DNA of 64,000 bases, taken from NCBI RefSeq assembly GCF_963921235.1, contig NC_086097.1, positions 77,936,001-78,000,000 of the forward strand, written 5' to 3'. Position 1 is the stretch's first letter. Every line of letters begins with the position of its first letter. A program made the translations under genes and the position numbers. This DNA comes from Mobula hypostoma (Eukaryota). This document shows positions 5,371 through 58,269 of this stretch, piece after piece. The notes below the pieces were generated by a model that saw only the letters and a list, made by a program, of their open reading frames with translations, was not told the origin of the DNA and ran no database searches.

Positions 5371-5390
5371 TACTTCCTGTTCAGAGATGG

Positions 5391-5619
5391 TGTGGTAAAC
5401 CATATATATGTTGTAGCTGGGTTAACTGTCTGGCCACACACCCCTCTGCTGACTGCCCCTGTGGTTCCTCCCACAGACCCTCAATAAAGGTGATTTCGCC
5501 TTGCCCCTCCCCCTCAGTGCAGGGGCAGACACTCAGCATGGAAGTCGTATTGTACAGCGAATAAAAGCCCTTCAGTATTTACTCTACTTCAGTCTTTTGG
5601 AGTTATTGAAGGTGCTTCA
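5391..5619 (+). repeat. 5' LTR of Gypsy element (229 bp)
   Basis: Starts TGTGGTAAACC, ends GGTGCTTCA, contains AATAAA at 5560-5565; direct repeat of 9619-9844. Confidence 0.95.
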
Positions 5620-6401
5620 ATGTTATTCGCTGTAATTTTAAAGCATGGAACGTGTTCTGAGACCCGACAAGTTAGATCTCAATCCACAAATGCCTGAAGC
5701 TGGAAACGCTTTCGAACTCTGGCTGGCATACTTTGAATCGTACCTAGAGGAGATTAAAGCGACCAACTCCGCAGTGAAGCGCAGAGTTCTACTCTCCAGG
5801 GTCAGTCCACGGGTCTACTCAATGATCAGAGACCAGCCGAGCTATGACAGCATGATGAGCGCACTCAAAGGACAATACCTGCGGCCGATAAACAGTGTCT
5901 ACACACGACATCATTTAGCGACTTGAAACCTGTGGCCTGGGGAATCAAGTGCTGAGTTTGTCCAGGCCCTACGGATGCTCATGCAAGCCTGCAATTGCCA
6001 AGAACTGACGGCAGTACAGCATGTAGAGCTCCTAGTGAGAGACGCCTTCGTCACGGGGACCAGGTCAGTGTAGGTGCACCAGCAGCTGTTAGAAAAAGCC
6101 AATCTTACCTTAAGTTTGGCGATCAAGCTGGCCAACACGCTGGAGGCCGCTCTGCATAACTCTGAGGCTCTCCAGGCACGTGATCCCCCAATGGCCTCGT
6201 GGGTGCCGCAGACCCTGCAACCCACTGGTGAATCAACCATGGCTGCTGCTGGTCGCGAGTCCGTGAAGTGCTACTTCTGCGGACTCGAGAAGCACCCCCG
6301 GAAACGCTGCCCGGCTCGACAAGCTACCTGTTCCAGCTGTGCAAAGAAGGGCCATTTCACCAAGGTCTGTAAGTCCAAACCATGAGCAGGATCGAGCAGC
6401 G

Positions 6402-6570
6402 CCACGTGCGAGACATGGGGGTCGCAATCTTGCCTGCCGCCATCTTCCCTGCACGCCGCCACCACGTGCGAGACATGGGGGTCGCAATCTTGCCTGCCGC
6501 CATCTTCCCTGCACGCCGCCACCATGTGTGAGACGTGGGGGCGGCCATCTTGGTCGTCGCCCCTTCCCAC
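6402..6570 (+). repeat. 60-bp tandem repeat (about 2.8 copies) in the gag-protease linker
   Basis: CCACGTGCGAGACATGGGGGTCGCAATCTTGCCTGCCGCCATCTTCCCTGCACGCCGCCA occurs twice identically, followed by a diverged third copy. Confidence 0.95.
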
Positions 6571-7186
6571 CGCCTACGATCAATGGGTACTCATGGGGCA
6601 CCCCACCGCGCTGGACCAAGACAGCGACTCCGTGACTCTCGACCAAAGCGCCCCTCACCAGCTCGCAGGGTCAATGATGGACATCCTGGTGGAGGGGCGC
6701 AGGACAAGCTGCCTGTTTGACATAGGCAGCATGGAGAGTTTTATCCACCTGGACACGGTGCAGCATTACGGACTCGTGATACAGCCGGTAAGTCAGAGGG
6801 TCACCATGGCTTCTGGGTCGCATACAACAGACATCCGGGGAGGGCTGTGTAGCGACGCTAGTGGTGCAGGGCACAGAATATCGAGACTTTACGTTACTGG
6901 TCATGCCTCAACTGTGTGCCCCTGTGTTATTGGGGTTCGACTTCCAGAGCCACCTGAAAAGCGTGACAATGGAGTATGATGGGCCCCTCCCACCAATCAC
7001 TGTCGTAAATCCCCAGTTTGTAGGAATACTTCACATACCCTGCTACTGACCACCCACACACACCGACCCGCACATCCCACCCAACACCATGCCAACTGCC
7101 ACACTACCAATGCCACTTACGGCTTCTCCACCCTCAGGATCCCTCCCCCACCGCTGTTCGCCAACCTGACCCCCGACTGTAAACCT

Positions 7187-8191
7187 GTGGCAACTAAAAG
7201 CAGGAGGTACAGCACGGGGGACAGAGCCTTCATTAAGTCGGAGGTGCAGCGGCCACTTAGGGAGGGAGTCATTGAGGCAAGCACAAGTCCTTGGAGGGCG
7301 CAGATGGTCTTTGTTCAGAATGGGGAGAAGAACAGGATGGTCGTGGACTATAGCCAGACCATCAATAGGTTCACGCAGCTCGACACGTACCCTCTACCCC
7401 GCATCGCAGATATGGTCAATCCGATAGCACAGTACAAGGTGTACTCGACCATAGACCTAAAATCCGCTTACCATCAGCTCTCCATCCACCGGGAGGACTG
7501 CCCTTACACTGCCTTCGAGGCGGACGGCAGGCTTTATCACTTCCTGTGCGTCCCCTTCGGTGTCACGAATGGTGTATCTGTCTTCCAGAGGGCAATAGAC
7601 TGGATGGTGGAACAGTGCCAACTGAAGGCCATGTTCCCATATCTGGATAATATCACCATCTGCAATCACGACCAGCAGGATCACGACAACAACCTCCAAA
7701 AATTTCTCCAAGCGGCCAAAGCTTTCAATCTCACCTATAACAAGGACAAGTGTGTGTCCGGAACCACCCGACTTGCTATCCTTGGGTGTGTCGTGGAGAA
7801 TGGAGTCATTGGCCCTGACCCCGACCGTATGTGCCCCCTGTTGAAACTCCCTCTTCCCAAAACCCTCAGAGCCCTCAAAAGGTGTCTGGGCTTCTTTTCA
7901 TATTACGCCCAATGGATCTCTAACTATGCAGACAAGGCCAACCCCCTGGTCAAGTTCACCACATTCCCCCTCTCAGCCGAGGCCCGTGCGGCCTTCAGCC
8001 GCATAAAAGGGGACATTGCCAAAGCAGCAATGCATGCGGTGGATGAGGCCATTCCCTCCCAAGTAGAGAGTGACGCCTCCGACTTTGCACTGGCTGCTAC
8101 CCTCAACCAGGTGGGAAGACCAGTGGCGTTCTTCTCCCGTACCCTTCAAGGCCCTGAAATTCGGCACTCCGCAGTGGAGAAAGAGGCCTAG
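7187..8191 (+). pseudogene. pol: Gypsy reverse transcriptase / RNase H domain fragment
   Basis: 334-aa open frame with RMVVDYS..INRFT.LDTYPLPRI, IDLKSAYHQ, TAF, PFG, YLDN, LG.F.YY and SDAS motifs. Confidence 0.93.
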
Positions 8192-8197
8192 GCCATA

Positions 8198-8974
8198 GTG
8201 GAAGCTATTAAGCACTGGAGGCACTACCTTGCTGGCAAAAAGTTCATGTTTAACAACCCACAGCGGGGCAAAATCAAAAATGATGAAATTCTGAGGTGGA
8301 GAATCGAACTCTCCACCTACAACTATGACATCATGTACCGGCCTGGGAAGCTCAACGAGCCCTCCAATGCCCTATCCCGGGGAACATGCGCCAGCGCGCA
8401 GATCGACCGGCTATACGCCCTACATGTAGACCTTTGCCACCCCGGGGTCACCCGGCTTTTCCACTTTGTGAAAGCCTGGAACCTGCCTTACTCCCTTGAG
8501 GAGATCAGGACGATGGCCAGGGACTGCCAAGTCTGTGCAGAGTGCAAACCGCACTTCTACCGACCCGAAAAGGCACCACTCATCAAGGCCACCCGCCCCT
8601 TTGAGCGACTGAGTGTTGACTTTAAGGGCCCCCTTCCCTCCACCGACCGCAATGTGTACTTTCTTAATGTTATCAACAAGTACTCACGGGTCCCCTTTGC
8701 CATCCCCTGCCCCGACACCACTACCACGTCAGTTTTAAAAGCCCTGTGCAAGCTCTTCACTCTGTTCGAATACCCATGCTATATCCACAGTGACAGAGGG
8801 TCCTCGTTTATGAATGACGAGCTGCGCCAATATCGACTGGTTAGGGAAATTGCAACTAGTAGGACCACGAGCTATAATCCCTGGGGGAATGGACAGGTAG
8901 AGAAGGAGAATGGCACAGTGTGGAAAGCCACACTCTTAGCCCTCAGGTCAAAGGGACTGCCGGTCTCCAGCTGA
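8198..8974 (+). pseudogene. pol: Gypsy integrase domain fragment
   Basis: HHCC (HVDLCHPG...CQVC) and DDE core (VDFKGP; HSDRGSSF; NGQVEKEN). Confidence 0.93.
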
Positions 8975-9600
8975 CAGGAGGTCCTTCCCGAGGCACTCCA
9001 CTCCATCTGCTCCCTGTTACGCACGTCCACCAATGCCACCCCTCATGAGTGGATCTTTTCTTTTCCCAGAAAGTCGACCACTGGGACCACCCTACCAACT
9101 TGGCTGATGTCCCCGGGGCCAGTGTTACTCCGGAAACATGCGAGGAGCAATAAATACTCCCCGATGGTCGAGAGGTTTCACTTACTTCATGCGAACCCTC
9201 AGTATGCCATTGCGACTTTACCTGATGGGCGGGAGGACACGGTCTCCATCCGCGACCTGGCGCCCGCAGGAGCACCGGGCCCCTACCCTGAACACTCCGT
9301 GGTGACTATTGACCTCGTACCCACCGATGTATGTACCCACGAGACACCACGCACTCTAAGCCCTACACAGACACCACACGACACTCTCACACCGGGCATG
9401 ATGCACACGCACGAAGGGCTAACAACGCCTAACATGCTGACACCTCAAGTCAGGCCGGAGCCAGCACAACCGCCATCGCCGACGTAATCACCGTCGGTGC
9501 TACGTAGATCACAGTGACGGACTCGACTGCCTGATAGACTTGACCTGTAAATATACTTGTTTTAAATATTGTCAATCACTTCACCCCGCAGGACTCTTTT

Positions 9601-9618
9601 AAAAAAAGGAGGGGTGAA
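9601..9618 (+). other. Polypurine tract of Gypsy element
   Basis: AAAAAAAGGAGGGGTGAA immediately upstream of the TG of the 3' LTR. Confidence 0.9.
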
Positions 9619-9844
9619 TGTAGTAAACCATATATATGTTGTAACTGGGTTTACTGTCTGGACACGCCCTCTGCTGACTGCCCCTGTGGCTCCTCCCACA
9701 GTGTCCTATATAAAGGTGTTTCGCCTTGCTCCTCCCCCTCAGTCCGGCGACAAACACTCAGCATGGAAGTTGTATTGTACAGCGAATAAAAGCCTTTCAG
9801 TATTTACCTTACTTCAGTCTTTTGGAGTTACTGAAGGTGCTTCA
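9619..9844 (+). repeat. 3' LTR of Gypsy element (226 bp)
   Basis: TGTAGTAAACC...GGTGCTTCA; TATATAAA near 9707, AATAAA near 9785; followed by TSD GATGG. Confidence 0.95.
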
Positions 9845-10327
9845 GATGGAAAGATATTAAATGGATTTTTTGCATCTGTATTTACTCGGAAGATGGACAC
9901 AGAGTCTATAGAAGTGAGGCAAAGCAGCAGTGACATCATGGACCCTGGACAGGTTACAAAGGAGGAGGTGTTTGCTGTCTTGAGGCAAATTAGCATGGAT
10001 AAATCCCTAGGGCCTGACACATTGTTTCCTTGGACCCTTTTGGATGCCAGTGCAGAAATTGCAGGGGCCCAAGCAGAGACATTTACAACATCCTTGGCCT
10101 CGTGCGAGGTGCGGAAGGATTGGAGGATAGCTAATGCTGTTGCTTTGTTTAAGAAAAGCTCCAAGAATAAGCTAGGAAATTAGGTGAGCTTAGCATCAAT
10201 AGTGGGAAGGGTATTGAGGTTTCTAACCAACCGAAGATCTAAGTATTTGGATAGACATAGACTAATTAGGGATAGACAAGCTGGCAATGTGTGCAGTAAA
10301 TCATATGTAACTAATCTCATAGAGCTT

Positions 10328-30586: not shown

Positions 30587-30600
30587 ATATATTGGCCATA

Positions 30601-31054
30601 TGAGGGGTGATTGATAAGTTTGTGGCCTAAGGTAGAAGGAGAGGAGTTATTAACTTCAAACTTTCTGCATTATCACTCAAAGAGTTGACCTGCACGTGCA
30701 TGTAACGAGAGCATCTTGGACCTCCAGGTGGTCCATAGCAGGGGCGATTGATAAGTTCGTAGCCTAAGGTAGAAGGAGATGAGTTATACAGCTCTCGTTC
30801 CATGCACGTGCAGTTCAACTCTGAATGAAAATGCAGAAAGTTTGAAGTTAATAACTCATCCCCTTCTACTGTAGGTGACGAACTTATCAATCACCCCTGC
30901 TGTGAACCACTTCTGTAGGTCCAAGATGCCGACCTCTACAAAGAAGCTCCACGACCGCTGGACTAAGTGTGTAAATGTAGGAAAAATAAATGTGCTAGGT
31001 TTTCTAAAATTGATTCCTTTTACCTTAGGCCATGAACTTATCAATCACCCCTTG
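30601..31054. mobile_element. Mariner-derived MITE, copy 1 (454 bp)
   Basis: TA on both sides; TIR (T/C)GAGGGGTGATTGATAAGTT..TGGCCTAAGGTA at both ends plus two internal copies; remnant LHDRWTKCVNV of a mariner transposase C-terminus. Confidence 0.88.
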
Positions 31055-31931
31055 TATATTAATATAGATTTAGAAGAATGAGGATTGATGTGTATGTTTC
31101 ATCAAGTGTGTGGGACAAAACAGCAAAAACACCAAAACGATCATGGAAATGTCTGACATGACTACATCAGACAGTTCATGTTGACTTGTTGTCAGAAAGG
31201 CAAAGGCGGGTTTGTAATCTTTCTTGGTGACACTTGAGAAGTACTGCGAGAACCTGCACAACAGGAGAACGTAACCTGCAATAACTGGGATTCATCTGTG
31301 GGAAAGACTGTTCTTGAGGAGCTAGCATCAGACAATGGGCCAAGATCATATCAGATTTGTTTGAGGGTTTCATAATCATCCCAGACCACTCAGCCTTTAA
31401 TGGTTTAAAGTATATATACAACCTTGAGAGTTGTCTTCTTGCAGGCAGCCACAAAACAAAGAAATACAATAGAACCCATTAAAGAATAATCTCACACAAC
31501 AAAGACGGTCAAACACCCAATGTGTGAAAAAAAGAGCAAATTATGCAAACAATAAGAAAGTAAACAAATAACACAGAGATCACTAACCAAAAGTGAGTCC
31601 ATAGCCAGGGAGCCAACTCAGCACTGCAGCCAGTGAAGCTGGTGGCTACAGGCCATAGCCACCGAGCCAATCCAGTGCTGAGGCCAGTGTCGATGGTTGC
31701 AGGCCACAGCTGCAGAGCCAGTGCAGCACTGAAGTGCCTTGATCAAATCGTGCAAATAGTGAAAACAAAAGTAAACAAAAACACATGGAACGTGAACTGC
31801 AGAGTGAGTTCACAGCTGCAGAGCCCGTTCAGCATCGAGGTGAGTGAAGCTGGTCCAGAAGCCTGATGGCTGCAGGGTAACAACTGCTCCTGAACCTGGC
31901 GAAATGGGTCCTCCAGGACCTCCCACCCCAA

Positions 31932-32988: not shown

Positions 32989-33224
32989 TGTGGTAAACCA
33001 TATAATTATATGTTGTAACTGGGTTACCTGTCTGGACACGCCCCTCTGCTGACTGCTCCTGTGGCTCCTCCCTCAGACTTCTGAATAAAGGTGATTGGGC
33101 CATTGCTCCTCCTCTCAGTCCAGGGGCAGATACTCAGCATGGTGGAGGTCACATTTTACTGCTAATAAAAGCCTTTCAGTGTTTACTCTACTTCCAGTCT
33201 TTTGGAGTTATTGATAGTGCATCA
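32989..33224 (+). mobile_element. Solo LTR related to the 5391-9844 Gypsy family
   Basis: TGTGGTAAACCATATA...GTGCATCA, collinear with the Gypsy LTRs; perfect 5-bp TSD TCATG (32984-32988, 33225-33229). Confidence 0.95.
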
Positions 33225-40967: not shown

Positions 40968-42515
40968 ATGAGCGAAATACATGTTAGTAGGGAAGTGGTG
41001 TTAGGTAAATTGAAGGGATTGAAGGCAGATAAATCCCCAGGGCCAGATGGTCTGCATCCCAGAGTGCTTAAGGAAGTGGCCCAAGAAATAGTGGATGCAT
41101 TAGTGATAATTTTTCAAAACTCGTTAGATTCTGGACTAGTTCCTGAGGATTGGAGGGTGGCTAATGTAACCCCACTTTTTAAAAAAGGAGGGAGAGAGAA
41201 ACCGGGGAATTATAGGCCGGTTAGCCCAACGTCGGTGGTGGGGAAACTGCTGGAGTCAGTTATCAAGGATGTGATAACAGCACATTTGGAAAGCGGTGAA
41301 ATGATCGGACAAAGTCAGCATGGATTTGTGAAAGGAAAATCATGTCTGACGAATCTCATAGAATTCTTTGAGGATGTAACTAGTAGAGTGGATAGGGGAG
41401 AACCAGTGGATGTGGTATATTTGGATTTTCAAAAGGCTTTTGACAAGGTCCCACATAGGAGATTAGTGTGCAAACTTAAAGCACACGGTATTGGGGGTAA
41501 GGTATTGGTGTGGGTGGAGAATTGGTTAGCAGACAGGAAGCAAAGAGTGGGAATAAACGGGACCTTTTCAGAATGGCAGGCGGTGACTAGTGGGGTACCG
41601 CAAGGCTCAGTGCTGGGACCCCAGTTGTTTACAATATATATTAATGACTTGGATGAGGGAATTAAATGCAGCATCTCCAAGTTTGCGGATGACACAAAGC
41701 TGGGTGGCAGTGTTAGCAGTGAGGAGGATGCTAAGAGGATGCAGGGTGACTTGGATAGGTTGGGTGAGTGGGCAAACTCATGGCAGATGCAATTTAATGT
41801 GGATAAATGTGAAGTTATCCACTTTGGTGGCAAAAATAGGAAAACAGATTATTATCTGAATGGTGGCCGATTAGGAAAAGGGGAGGTGCAACGAGACCTG
41901 GGTGTCATTATACACCAGTCATTGAAAGTGGGCATGCAGGTACAGCAGGCGGTGAAAAAGGCGAACGGTATGCTGGCATTTATAGCGAGAGGATTCGAGT
42001 ACAGGAGCAGGGAGGTACTACTGCAGTTGTACAAGGCCTTGGTGAGACCACACCTGGAGTATTGTGTGCAGTTTTGGTCCCCTAATCTGAGGAAAGACAT
42101 CTTTGCCATAGAGGGAGTACAAAGAAGGTTCACCAGATTGATTCCTGGGATGACAGGTCTTTCATATGAAGAAAGACTGGATGAACTGGGCTTGTACTCG
42201 TTGGAATTTAGAAGATTGAGGGGGGATCTGATTGAAACGTATAAGATCCTAAAGGGATTGGACAGGCTAGATGCGGGAAGATTGTTCCCGATGTTGGGGA
42301 GGTCTAGAACGAGGGGTCACAGTTTGAGGATAGAGGGGAAGCCTTTTAGGACCGAGGTTAGGAAAAACTTCTTCACACAGAGAGTGGTGAATCTGTGGAA
42401 TTCTCTACCACAGCAAACTGTTGAGGCCAGTTCATTAGCTATGTTTAAAAGGAAGTTAGATATGGCCCTTGTGGCTACAGGGGTCAGGGGGTATGGAGGG
42501 AAGGCTGGGTTCTGA
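40968..42515 (+). CDS. CR1 ORF2 reverse transcriptase, C-terminal 515 aa (open but 5'-truncated, no endonuclease)
   Basis: KSPGPDG, NYRPVS, QHGF, YLDFQKAFDKVPH, GVPQGSVLGP, FADD and LVRPHLEYC motifs with no stops. Confidence 0.9.
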   Translation: MSEIHVSREVVLGKLKGLKADKSPGPDGLHPRVLKEVAQEIVDALVIIFQNSLDSGLVPEDWRVANVTPLFKKGGREKPGNYRPVSPTSVVGKLLESVIKDVITAHLESGEMIGQSQHGFVKGKSCLTNLIEFFEDVTSRVDRGEPVDVVYLDFQKAFDKVPHRRLVCKLKAHGIGGKVLVWVENWLADRKQRVGINGTFSEWQAVTSGVPQGSVLGPQLFTIYINDLDEGIKCSISKFADDTKLGGSVSSEEDAKRMQGDLDRLGEWANSWQMQFNVDKCEVIHFGGKNRKTDYYLNGGRLGKGEVQRDLGVIIHQSLKVGMQVQQAVKKANGMLAFIARGFEYRSREVLLQLYKALVRPHLEYCVQFWSPNLRKDIFAIEGVQRRFTRLIPGMTGLSYEERLDELGLYSLEFRRLRGDLIETYKILKGLDRLDAGRLFPMLGRSRTRGHSLRIEGKPFRTEVRKNFFTQRVVNLWNSLPQQTVEASSLAMFKRKLDMALVATGVRGYGGKAGF

Positions 42516-42613
42516 GTTGGATGATCAGCCATGATCATAATAAATGGTGGTGCAGGCTCGAAGGGCCGAATGGCCTACTCCTGCACCTATTTTCTATGTT
42601 TCTATGTTTCTAT
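40968..42613 (+). mobile_element. Young 5'-truncated CR1 LINE
   Basis: Uninterrupted RT frame followed by a 3' UTR with AGGGCCGAATGGCCT hairpin and (TTTCTATG)n tail. Confidence 0.97.
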
Positions 42614-49899: not shown

Positions 49900-52170
49900 A
49901 AAATGTAAACAGCTTACTCTATAGCTTGGCATTCATTACTATCATCCTCTTAAAACTAATCAATCAGCTTCAAGACTGTGAGGCGAAGCACAGCTCTAAT
50001 GCCATACTTAAGCGTGCTGACGACAGCACTGTTGTTGACTGAATCAAAGGTGGTGACGTATCATAATATACAAGGGCGACTGGAAATCTGGCTGAGTGGT
50101 GCCACAAAAACAACCTCTCACTAAATGTCAGCAAGACCAAAGAGATGATTATTGACTTCAGGAAGCGGAAACTGGAGCTTCATGAGCCAGTCCTCACTGG
50201 GGGTCAGAAACGTGAGGTTCCCCGGTGTTATCATTTCAGAAGATCTGTCCTGGGCCCAGCACATAAGTGCAATTACAAAGAAAGCACAATAGTACCTCTA
50301 TTTCCTAAGAAGTTTGCGAAGATTTGGCATGACTTCTAAAACTTTGACAAACTTCTATAGATGTGTGGTGGGGAATATATTAACTGGTTGCATCATGGCC
50401 TGGTATAGAAACAGAAATGCCCTTGAACAGAAAATCCTGCAAAAAGTAGTGGATATAGAAACATAGAAACATAGAAAATAGGTGCAGGAGTAGGCCATTC
50501 GGCCCTTCGAGCCTGCACCGCCATTTATTATGATCATGGCTGATCATCCAACTCAGAACCCAGTCTTCCCTCCATACCCCCTGACCCCTGTAGCCACAAG
50601 GGCCATATCTAACTCCCTCTTAAACATAGCCAATGAACTGGCCTCAACAGTTTGCTGTGGCAGAGAATTCCACAGATTCACCACTCTCTGTGTGAAGAAG
50701 TTTTTCCTAATCTCGGTCCTAAAAGGCTTCCCCTCTATCCTCAAACTGTGACTCCTCATTCTGGACCTCCCCAACCTTGGGAACAATCTTCCCGCATCTA
50801 GCCTGTCCAATCCCTTTAGGATTTTATACGTTTCAATCAGATCCCCCCTCAATCTTCTAAATTCCAACGAGTACAAGCCCAGTTCATCCAGTCTTTCTTC
50901 ATATGAAAGACCTGCCATCCCAGGAATCAATCTGGTGAACCTTCTTTGTACTCCCTCTATGGCAAAGATGTCTTTCCTCAGATTAGGGGACCAAAACTGC
51001 ACACAATACTCCAGGTGTGGTCTCACCAAGGCCCTGTACAACTGCAGTAGTACCTCCCTGCTCCTGTACTCGAATCCTCTCGCTATAAATGCCAGCATAC
51101 CGTTCGCCTTTTTCACCGCCTGCTGTACCTGCATGCCCACTTTCAATCACTGGTGTATAATGACACCCAGGTCTCGTTGCACCTCCCCTTTTCCTAATCG
51201 GCCACCATTCAGATAATAATCTGTTTTCCTATTTTTGCCACCAAAGTGGATAACTTCACATTTATCCACATTAAATTGCATCTGCCATGAGTTTGCCCAC
51301 TCACCCAACCTATCCAAGTCACCCTGCATCCTCTTAGCATCCTCCTCACTGCTAACACTGCCACCCAGCTTCGTGTCATCCGCAAACTTGGAGATGCTGC
51401 ATTTAATTCCCTCATCCAAGTCATTAATATATATTGTAAGCAACTGGGGTCCCAGCACTGAGCCTTGCGGTACCCCACTAGTTACCGCCTGCCATTCTGA
51501 AAAGGTCCCGTTTATTCCCACTCTTTGCTTCCTGTCTGCTAACCAATTCTCCACCCACACCAATACCTTACCCCCAATACCGTGTGCTTTAAGTTTGCAC
51601 ACTAATCTCCTGTGTGGGACCTTGTCAAAAGCCTTTTGAAAATCCAAATATAGCCCAAATATGGCCCAGTCCGTCACGGGTAAATCCTTCCACACCATTG
51701 AGCACATCTACATGGAATGCAGTCGCAAGAAAGCAGCACCCATCACCAAGGAGTCTCCTCACTACGGCCGTGCTCTTTTCTTGTTGTTGCCATCAGGAAG
51801 AAGGTACCGGATCTGAGGACCCACACCACTGGGTTCAGGAGCAGCTATTACCCATCAACCATCAGGCTGTTGAACCAGTGGGGATAACTTCACTCAACTT
51901 CACTCGCCCCATCACTGAACTGTTCCCACAACTAATGAACTCACTTTCTAGAACCTTTTATCTGATGTTCTTGATAGTTATTGCTTATTTATTATTATTT
52001 CCTTTTTTCTTTTTCCTTCTGTATTTGCGCTGTTCGTTGCCTTTTGTACACTGATTGTTTGTCCTGTTTCTATTATGTTTTCTTGGATTTTCTGGGAATG
52101 CCGGCAAGAAAACAAACCTAAGGGTGTATGAAGTGATGTGTAACTACTTTGATAATAAATTTACTTTTAA
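49900..52170 (+). mobile_element. Decayed Rex1/Babar-type LINE 3' part interrupted by a young CR1
   Basis: ADDSTVV, LNVSKTKEMIIDFRK, ILTGCI.AWY and LQKVVD-(CR1)-MAQS.TG motifs; tail GATAATAAATTTACTTT. Confidence 0.75.
50455..51652 (-). mobile_element. Young 5'-truncated CR1 LINE, near-identical to 41416-42613
   Basis: Minus-strand ORFs 51147-51707 and 50553-51146 reproduce the 40968-42515 protein almost exactly, with one TGA at 51147-51149; (CATAGAAA)n tail at 50455-50478. Confidence 0.97.
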
Positions 52171-57000: not shown

Positions 57001-57188
57001 CAATCTCTGTCCTTCATTCTACCTCCCACTCTTTGATAAAATTGGGGCTTTATGACAGGGAAAAATATCAGAATAATGTTGGGATTGAAAAAGAAAATGA
57101 ATGCTCCAGAGAGGCAGGGATCACCTGAAATCTATTTGATTTGTTTTCTAAACTAATTGGCCTACAAGCATTAAAGCACCTCCATGTA

Positions 57189-57811
57189 CGAGGGGTGATT
57201 GATAAGTTCATGGCCTAAGGTAGAAGGAGTCAATTTTAGAAAACCTAGCACAGTTATTTTTCAACATAGTCCCCTCCTACATGTACACACTTAGTCCAGT
57301 GGCTGTGGAGCATACGGATCCCTTCTTTGTGGAAGTGGTCCACAGCAGGGGTGATTGATAAGTTTGTGGCCTAAGGTAGAAGGAGACGAGTTATTAACTT
57401 CAAACGTTCTGCATTATCACTCAAAGAGTTGATGTGCATGTGCATATAACGAGAGCATCTTGGACCTCCAGGTGGTCCATAGCTGGGGCGATTGATAAGT
57501 TCATGGCCTAAAATAGAAGGAGATGAGTTACATTCACATGCAGTTCAACTCTTAGAGTGAAAATGCAGAAAGTTTGAAGTTAATAACTCAACTCCTTCTA
57601 CCTTAGGCCACGAACTTATCAATCACCCCGGCTGTGGACCACCTCTGGAGGTCCAAGACACCAACTTCTAAAAAGAAGGGATTTGTATGCTCCACGACCA
57701 CTGGACTAAGTGTGTAAATGTAGCAGGGGACTATGTTGAAAAATAAATGTGCGAGTTCTTCTAAAATTGACTCCTTCTACCTTAGGCCATGAACTTATCA
57801 ATCACCCCACG
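57189..57811. mobile_element. Mariner-derived fold-back MITE, copy 2 (623 bp)
   Basis: TA TSD (57187-57188, 57812-57813); about 145-bp inverted arms, the right one encoding KEGICMLHDHWTKCVNVAGDYVEK* and the left its mirror; three further internal TIR copies. Confidence 0.92.
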
Positions 57812-58269
57812 TACACCACTATTGAACTCAAGATGGTTTGTAATGTGATGTAGTCAGGTTTATCCATTCCTTTTGTGTTTGCTGCAGATACAGTAACTCA
57901 ACCAGCCTGGGCTGTGTTAATCAATGCCACAGTGTTTACTTAACCATAGAGTATATCAGGGGCTACCTCCCTGATACATACAGGACAAGTAACATTAAAC
58001 AAAATTCATCACATGGCATTGTGTTTAAAAATAATCAGTGAATAATAAGTCCCTTTTAAAGCTGAATTGGTAGTAAGTTTGTGCATGAAAGCACTGAATT
58101 AAAACAATTAACAAACTTTTCCAGAGGAAGTGTTTGAGGCAAGTACAAACATACAAATGCTTTATTTAAGAGGCATTTGGATTGGTATACAGACCGGAAG
58201 GGCTTGGAAGGTTATGGGCCAGACATGGGTAACTGGGACCAGCAGGGAGCATTCACTGGTTGGCCTGGA

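Follow-up and report, generated by a model that had tools for sequence, protein, structure and literature searches.

How does a Gypsy-type retrotransposon start reverse transcription when its 5' LTR is not followed by a tRNA-type primer-binding site? The question is raised by an element at positions 5391-9844 of the window, the 64-kb stretch of the Mobula hypostoma genome analysed here. The first-pass annotation of this DNA had pointed to a short complement of the element's own LTR at the place of the missing site, and had proposed self-priming as a candidate mechanism. Self-priming is regarded as characteristic of the Tf1/sushi chromoviruses and, to our knowledge, has been shown experimentally only for Tf1 of fission yeast. 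The parts of the element, together with a related solo LTR of the same window, are the following.

5386-5390 (+): left target-site duplication GATGG, identical to the 5 nt at 9845-9849
5391-5619 (+): 5' LTR, 229 bp, TGT...TCA, about 91% identical to the 3' LTR
5482-5490 (+): TATA-like box by sequence (the 3' LTR and many copies read TATAAAG), of putative function
5514-5518 (+): TCAGT resembling an initiator, with A5516 as the predicted start, 32-33 nt past the TATA-like box
5553-5566 (+): arm 1, the predicted 3' part of the primer, with the predicted cut after 5566 where pairing ends
5560-5565 (+): AATAAA inside arm 1
5567-5569 (+): conserved RCC directly after arm 1 (GCC or ACC in 20 of 22 families)
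5569-5612 (+): inverted repeat within U5, 5569-5577 with 5604-5612, which stacks on the main duplex in the window element's family
5620 (+): single-nucleotide spacer separating arm 2 from the LTR end, an A in 20 of 22 families
5621-5634 (+): arm 2, the putative primer-binding site, complement of arm 1 (12 nt perfect in the window element)
5645-6385 (+): gag with two CCHC-type knuckles, interrupted by stop codons
6386-9487 (+): pol region (protease region, RT, RNase H, integrase) with stops and frame changes, no chromodomain
9601-9618 (+): polypurine tract before the 3' LTR
9619-9844 (+): 3' LTR, 226 bp, with arm 1 present and no arm 2 after it
9845-9849 (+): right target-site duplication GATGG
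32989-33224 (+): solo LTR of a sister subfamily, with altered arm 1 and target duplication TCATG

The TG...CA LTRs, the target duplication, the purine tract and the gag-PR-RT-RH-IN order are those of a Ty3/gypsy element, with RT, RNase H and integrase assigned by Pfam; this copy is dead. The nearest named homologues of its RT come from rays and sharks, and the earlier description of gag as Mag-like agrees with the two CCHC-type knuckles and with a Mag-type spacing of the RT motif, as read by eye. The ESM Atlas returned just generic gag clusters, a scan of viral contigs gave no relative of the element, the Rfam scan gave nothing close to the gathering score, and no tRNA gene is present in the 64-kb window. 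Past the gag knuckles and ahead of the protease region, 6402-6581 consists of a 60-nt unit in three tandem copies, two of them identical; this region varies in length in contigs of related organisms. Elsewhere in the window two 1.2-kb copies, 98% alike and inverted 7.8 kb apart, lie over long ORFs (41411-42613 and 50455-51657) and are probably a young LINE pair, and a repeat present twice (57185-57815 and 30596-31059) carries units of about 140-160 nt as nested inverted arms.

The complement first noticed is real: 5623-5634 is the exact reverse complement of 5553-5564 without any mismatch-free extension, and no TGG follows the 5' LTR of the element. Its extent had to be revised, as pairing in other copies is longer and starts 1 nt past the LTR end. 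Among the best 30 of 40 copies listed, 14 of 14 nt are paired in 11 and the rest carry 1-2 mismatches, many of them at a CpG. The search of the 3.5 Gb genome gave 610 exact LTR-end-plus-arm junctions (151 strict normal leaders, 33 exact fold-backs of the type described below and 426 belonging to neither class), and pairing over 16 nt was found in 69 of 100 normal junctions among the matches listed. Judged by these copies, the 12-nt match of the window is what is left of a duplex of 14-16 nt that joined the LTR to the primer-site position. The idea that the 1-2 extra letters after arm 2 record variable copying of the primer was rejected, because the longer form is the commonest one. Chance is a poor source of such a match: none of 3960 internal 20-mers of the element reaches a 10-nt complement to the LTR, and a 12-nt complement occurs in one of 7643 background 20-mers. 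The RNA fold of 5510-5660 has a z of -4.6, and none of 200 shuffles was as stable.

A duplex that matters should be kept by compensatory change, and a specific case had been predicted from the solo LTR at 32989-33224, namely that its subfamily should carry TTATTAGCAGTA after the LTR. Thirty matches of this sister subfamily were examined, of which 26 are solo or 3' LTRs; the four loci with element-derived sequence at that place (L122, L123, L131 and L143) all carry the predicted arm, a double compensatory change with both positions as foreseen.

Relatives at about 40-65% protein identity were collected from 79 metagenome loci and 8 genome-collection loci. The arm analysis used the 38 of these 87 whose match runs from the start of gag and leaves 90 nt or more upstream; with the window element and L123 they make up 26 distinct upstream (pre-gag) families, and four further loci (L044, L054, L077 and L080) were viewed and excluded. 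A perfect inverted arm of 10-18 nt pairing with the family's own LTR is present in 20 of the 26; pairs made across families reach this in 28 of 650 cases and shuffles in 10 of 1300. The covariation proposed as a check was found both within the genome and across distant families. Six families lack a perfect 10-nt arm. One of them (L099) has 11 nt paired including one G-U, and in the other five (L037, L040, L045, L062 and L112) no LTR junction was identified; at least L037, L062 and L112 have no true gag start at the match start.

Anchored at the junction, 22 families show Watson-Crick pairing of 0.977 at the variable positions 5-12, compared to 0.53 (maximum 0.67 in 5000) with shuffled partners, a score that speaks for specificity and not for prevalence, since the 22 were selected for having an arm. 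Nor are these families all independent. Up to four pair types occur per column. In 21 of the 22 arm 1 ends in TAAA, ahead of the RCC listed above. Intact copies with a normal TGG primer site had been named in advance as the finding to look for against self-priming; TGG is absent within 0-6 nt past the LTR in all 22. In the six distant elements with a readable second LTR flank arm 2 stands behind the 5' LTR only. The U5 inverted repeat, when followed across families, was not above shuffles.

Some loci deserve separate mention. L079, a distant relative with 39% identity, also pairs with its own LTR, but its junction is of another type (no TAAA^RCC); this hints that the trait is not confined to the core clade. 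In L072 (150-280) LTR end and arm 2 occur twice ahead of gag with a separate hairpin between them. The gag ATG of L034, L038 and L095 directly abuts the end of arm 2, so that the duplex may also affect the translation start. Contigs of bacterial metagenome-assembled genomes hold animal-type Gypsy elements, complete or partial (L110-L117), probably as host contamination.

The genome carries a second kind of evidence. L122 was the first case of an arm 2 which continues into further inverted LTR sequence. Two patterns for such junctions gave 63 and 19 matches (at least 82 in the genome) and the reversed control patterns none. Inspection of 71 junctions (54 of the 63 and 17 of the 19) showed that the inverted arm reaches the LTR start in 57, resumes past a deletion or jump in five and stops in nine. 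Thirty fold-backs, located by a pattern that selects for them, were inspected with both flanks, and both ends were located in 23. Seventeen of these stand alone as palindromes of about 405 bp, four run into the purine tract of an inverted element and two (L155 and L177) have arm 2 behind a 3' LTR. Among the stand-alone fold-backs, 15 of 17 terminate precisely at the first base of the LTR on both sides, and the 5-bp target duplication is perfect in 13 and has one mismatch in two more. LTR ends this precise, with a target duplication next to them, indicate that integrase inserted reverse-transcribed DNA, and arm 2 after 3' LTRs indicates copying from whatever sat on the 5' end of the minus strand.

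As the simplest source of the fold-backs we infer plus-strand DNA that terminates in copied primer sequence, the situation reported for Tf1, where about half of the cDNA molecules have a single-stranded PBS copy at the 3' end (PMC11042837). The inverted part resembles its own LTR more than expected at random (mean rank 7.1 of 23, p = 0.0002) and matches it best in just 2 of 23 loci; simple intramolecular fold-back therefore cannot explain all cases, and one has to reckon with templates on other molecules or with later decay. In L149 and L203 the sequence past the extended arm jumps to the element's protease region, and the jump of L149 lies at a short shared motif; these are internally deleted elements from mis-priming. 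L190, seen together with L222 and L223, is a double fold-back composed of LTR, arm with partial tail and complete inverted LTR, with a target duplication containing one mismatch.

Covariation and fold-back insertions both support the candidate put forward at the start, and it is probable that the elements of this clade prime reverse transcription with their own RNA, independently of tRNA. The following course would account for the observations. In the 5' leader arm 1, within R, pairs with arm 2, 1 nt past the LTR, as the complementarity and its covariation show. The RNA would be cut at the conserved TAAA^RCC junction, a site that we infer from the end of pairing, probably by the RNase H of the element by analogy to Tf1; the freed 3' end could then be extended across the spacer A into U5, again as in Tf1. 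To judge from the fossil insertions, the primer would stay on the minus strand and be copied by the plus strand, so that plus-strand DNA would end in arm 2. Since arm 2 complements arm 1 in any plus-sense copy of the LTR, this 3' end would sometimes anneal there and might be extended back through R and U3. The product, with a U3 at either end, could then be inserted by integrase, and recombination between LTRs probably yields the fold-back elements of about 405 bp.

The length of the primer is less clear. In the window element's family the initiator-like TCAGT lies 37 nt upstream of arm 1 and 51-54 nt before its end. The nine arm copies that stop do so at -4, -3, -1, +1, +6, +15, +21, +26 and +32 from the initiator A, none of them upstream of -4, and two (L122 and L181) have a target duplication on their flanks. 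Four of the nine fall within -4 to +2 (p = 0.005 for this fixed window, p = 0.2 for any 7-nt window with 12 offsets tested, under a uniform null which is generous). The first-pass annotation had seen a difficulty in an arm lying 35-40 nt past the presumed start; the stops answer part of it and are suggestive only. Evidence is about evenly balanced on whether the primer would be the whole first 50 nt or so of the transcript, and not 11 nt, in the window element's family. In 18 of 19 distant families a strict pattern, which also missed the window element's own box, found no TATA-like box ahead of the arm, so that the primer of about 50 nt rests on one family.

The closest competitor is a variant within self-priming, in which transcription would start at or just before arm 1 and give a primer of 11-18 nt with the geometry of Tf1, whose primer is the transcript's first 11 bases (PMC7175516). 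Arms of 10-18 nt and distant families without a TATA-like box at a fixed distance would fit it. In the window element's family, however, the TATA-like box and TCAGT, 32-33 nt apart, lie well ahead of arm 1, no TATA-like box lies 25-35 nt ahead of the arm itself, and all nine stopping copies exceed the arm to end close to or downstream of the initiator. The short primer is a possible but less likely reading.

A different reading keeps the duplex and denies its use in priming: it would just hide the 5' poly(A) signal, or aid packaging or translation, and the primer would be something else, for example an unusual tRNA fragment. AATAAA or ATTAAA is indeed part of arm 1 in 13 of 22 families, a mask could act in the 5' LTR alone, and fold-backs require no more than complementarity and a free DNA end. 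Against this, a canonical hexamer is missing from the arms of nine of the 22 families (three of them carry AATAAA or ATTAAA unpaired in the loop), the arm is always at the primer-site position with its fixed spacer, and the arm 2 copies of L155 and L177 look copied from an attachment at the minus-strand 5' end. The argument against a tRNA rests, at the level of sequence, on the missing TGG and on a site changing between families, which one host tRNA cannot follow. We consider hiding without priming improbable. The masking hairpin, suggested earlier as an alternative, is disfavoured as the main role by the fold-backs, which speak for priming; because 13 of 22 paired arms contain the hexamer it may be a second role of the duplex, which would hide AAUAAA only in the 5' LTR and likely bring a second benefit where the hexamer is present.

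Still a little less probable is a primer consisting of a separate short RNA from any LTR, solo LTRs included, acting in trans. The abundance of solo LTRs would supply such an RNA and inverted arms are often unlike the adjoining LTR, but the arms covary strictly with their own LTR, folding in cis is strongly favoured and a precedent in cis is already known. Least probable of all is that the fold-backs are products of host repair (short inverted repeat, break, fold-back) and uninformative on priming: palindromes in chromosomes can arise from short inverted repeats, but a fold-back made by the host would copy flanking DNA too, which is not how the 15 stand-alone cases with exact LTR ends and target duplication are built.

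Priming by the element's own RNA, the preferred reading, would be a known mechanism in a lineage for which no report was found, and its fossil record is unusual. If a broad clade of animal Gypsy elements is the second group to work without host tRNA, the view of how often priming was reinvented would change, and its elements should escape silencing by tRNA 3' fragments. LTR finders requiring a tRNA site will miss the clade. The fold-backs may serve as a record of reverse-transcription intermediates from which the primer site, and perhaps the start site, can be read from genomes alone. If their proposed origin is true, these mini-elements of about 400 bp resemble DNA-transposon MITEs and yet come from reverse transcription, a new origin for short palindromic repeats which annotators would class as MITEs.

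The clade has LTRs of 150-240 bp and a single ORF of 1180-1290 aa, and its proteins are named, at the protein level only, from nematodes, sea anemone, soft coral and damselfly. The absence of a visible chromodomain, noted in the first pass, was confirmed with Pfam (E <= 0.05) in the pieces of the window element and in all 30 intact relatives. RT-RNase H trees were built in a quick version with 75 rows and a careful one with 37 (38 redundant or long-branch rows dropped), with unnamed proteins as the chromodomain group standing in for Tf1 and sushi. In the careful tree the clade is monophyletic (100/100), has a long stem and falls outside the group that unites three chromodomain proteins with one relative (100/99); the quick tree likewise has it monophyletic and outside. 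The clade is not nested among the chromodomain elements, and a sister relation to them is not rejected (p-AU of the joining tree 0.24 careful, 0.86 quick). That a chromodomain-less animal Gypsy clade evolved tRNA-independent priming by itself, complete with a capped primer of about 50 nt cut at TAAA^RCC, a duplex silencing the poly(A) signal and the spawning of fold-backs, is a tentative reading which, taken as a whole, falls somewhat short of an even chance.

Among known lineages Mag elements share the short gag with two CCHC-type knuckles; they use tRNA primers. Cigr-1 has an LTR of about 245 bp, a single ORF of about 1200 codons and an echinoderm-like gag. By this description, Cigr-1 of Ciona and the mollusc Cigr-1/MolGy clades would resemble the present clade in LTR and ORF sizes, and the clade may already bear the name Cigr-1 or another. 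In the RT motif, D[YF] and N are separated by four residues in the clade, as in reptile Mag (PMC3670739, supplement 3), and by three in Ty3. It differs from Mag in a distinct integrase zinc-finger region and PFGVTNG motif; the trees contain no Mag reference. The motifs of the clade had no match in the accessible parts of the supplements of PMC6238403, PMC8556966, PMC13524379 and PMC3670739, and a term search of the text of PMC2774666 gave neither Cigr nor PBS. The literature accessible to the search held no report that describes self-priming for animal Gypsy elements lacking a chromodomain, or LTR mini-elements of fold-back form; Repbase, GyDB or Dfam may name the clade or mention its primer site.

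The same kind of prediction from a complement of the own LTR, 0-5 nt past the 5' LTR, exists for Tcn1 (gypsy) and for TAR, Houba and Osr-1 (copia), and the available part of that work names no self-priming example among non-chromovirus gypsy elements (PMC6317226). These lineages are plant or fungal, unlike the present clade, Tcn1 being a chromovirus and TAR a copia element.

The nearest likeness is to Tf1/Tf2 of Schizosaccharomyces pombe and the Tf1/sushi group, which, as far as the available sections tell, likewise have no tRNA site and pair the sequence after the 5' LTR with the LTR (PMC7175516, PMC11042837). The clade would work like Tf1 and yet depart from the Tf1/sushi group in two features, a chromodomain being absent and the three-duplex 'pretzel' leader unsupported; its RT forms a clade of its own. 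For the pretzel, pairing of the 15 nt past arm 2 with U5 is not above shuffles (6.3 versus 5.8 nt, p = 0.13, 20 families). Folds had suggested to the eye a conserved RCC...GG stem beyond the cut, but it is no longer than in shuffles (4.5 versus 4.5). The arm of 10-18 nt, often overlapping the poly(A) signal, ends at the conserved TAAA^RCC, and the primer may have a 5' tail of about 35 nt. Aberrant insertions also arise in Tf1 from cDNA that carries a primer copy at its 3' end (bioRxiv 10.1101/2022.12.06.519325, PMC11042837); those are described, in the sections available, as tandem direct insertions, whereas the aberrant products of the present clade are inverted fold-backs.
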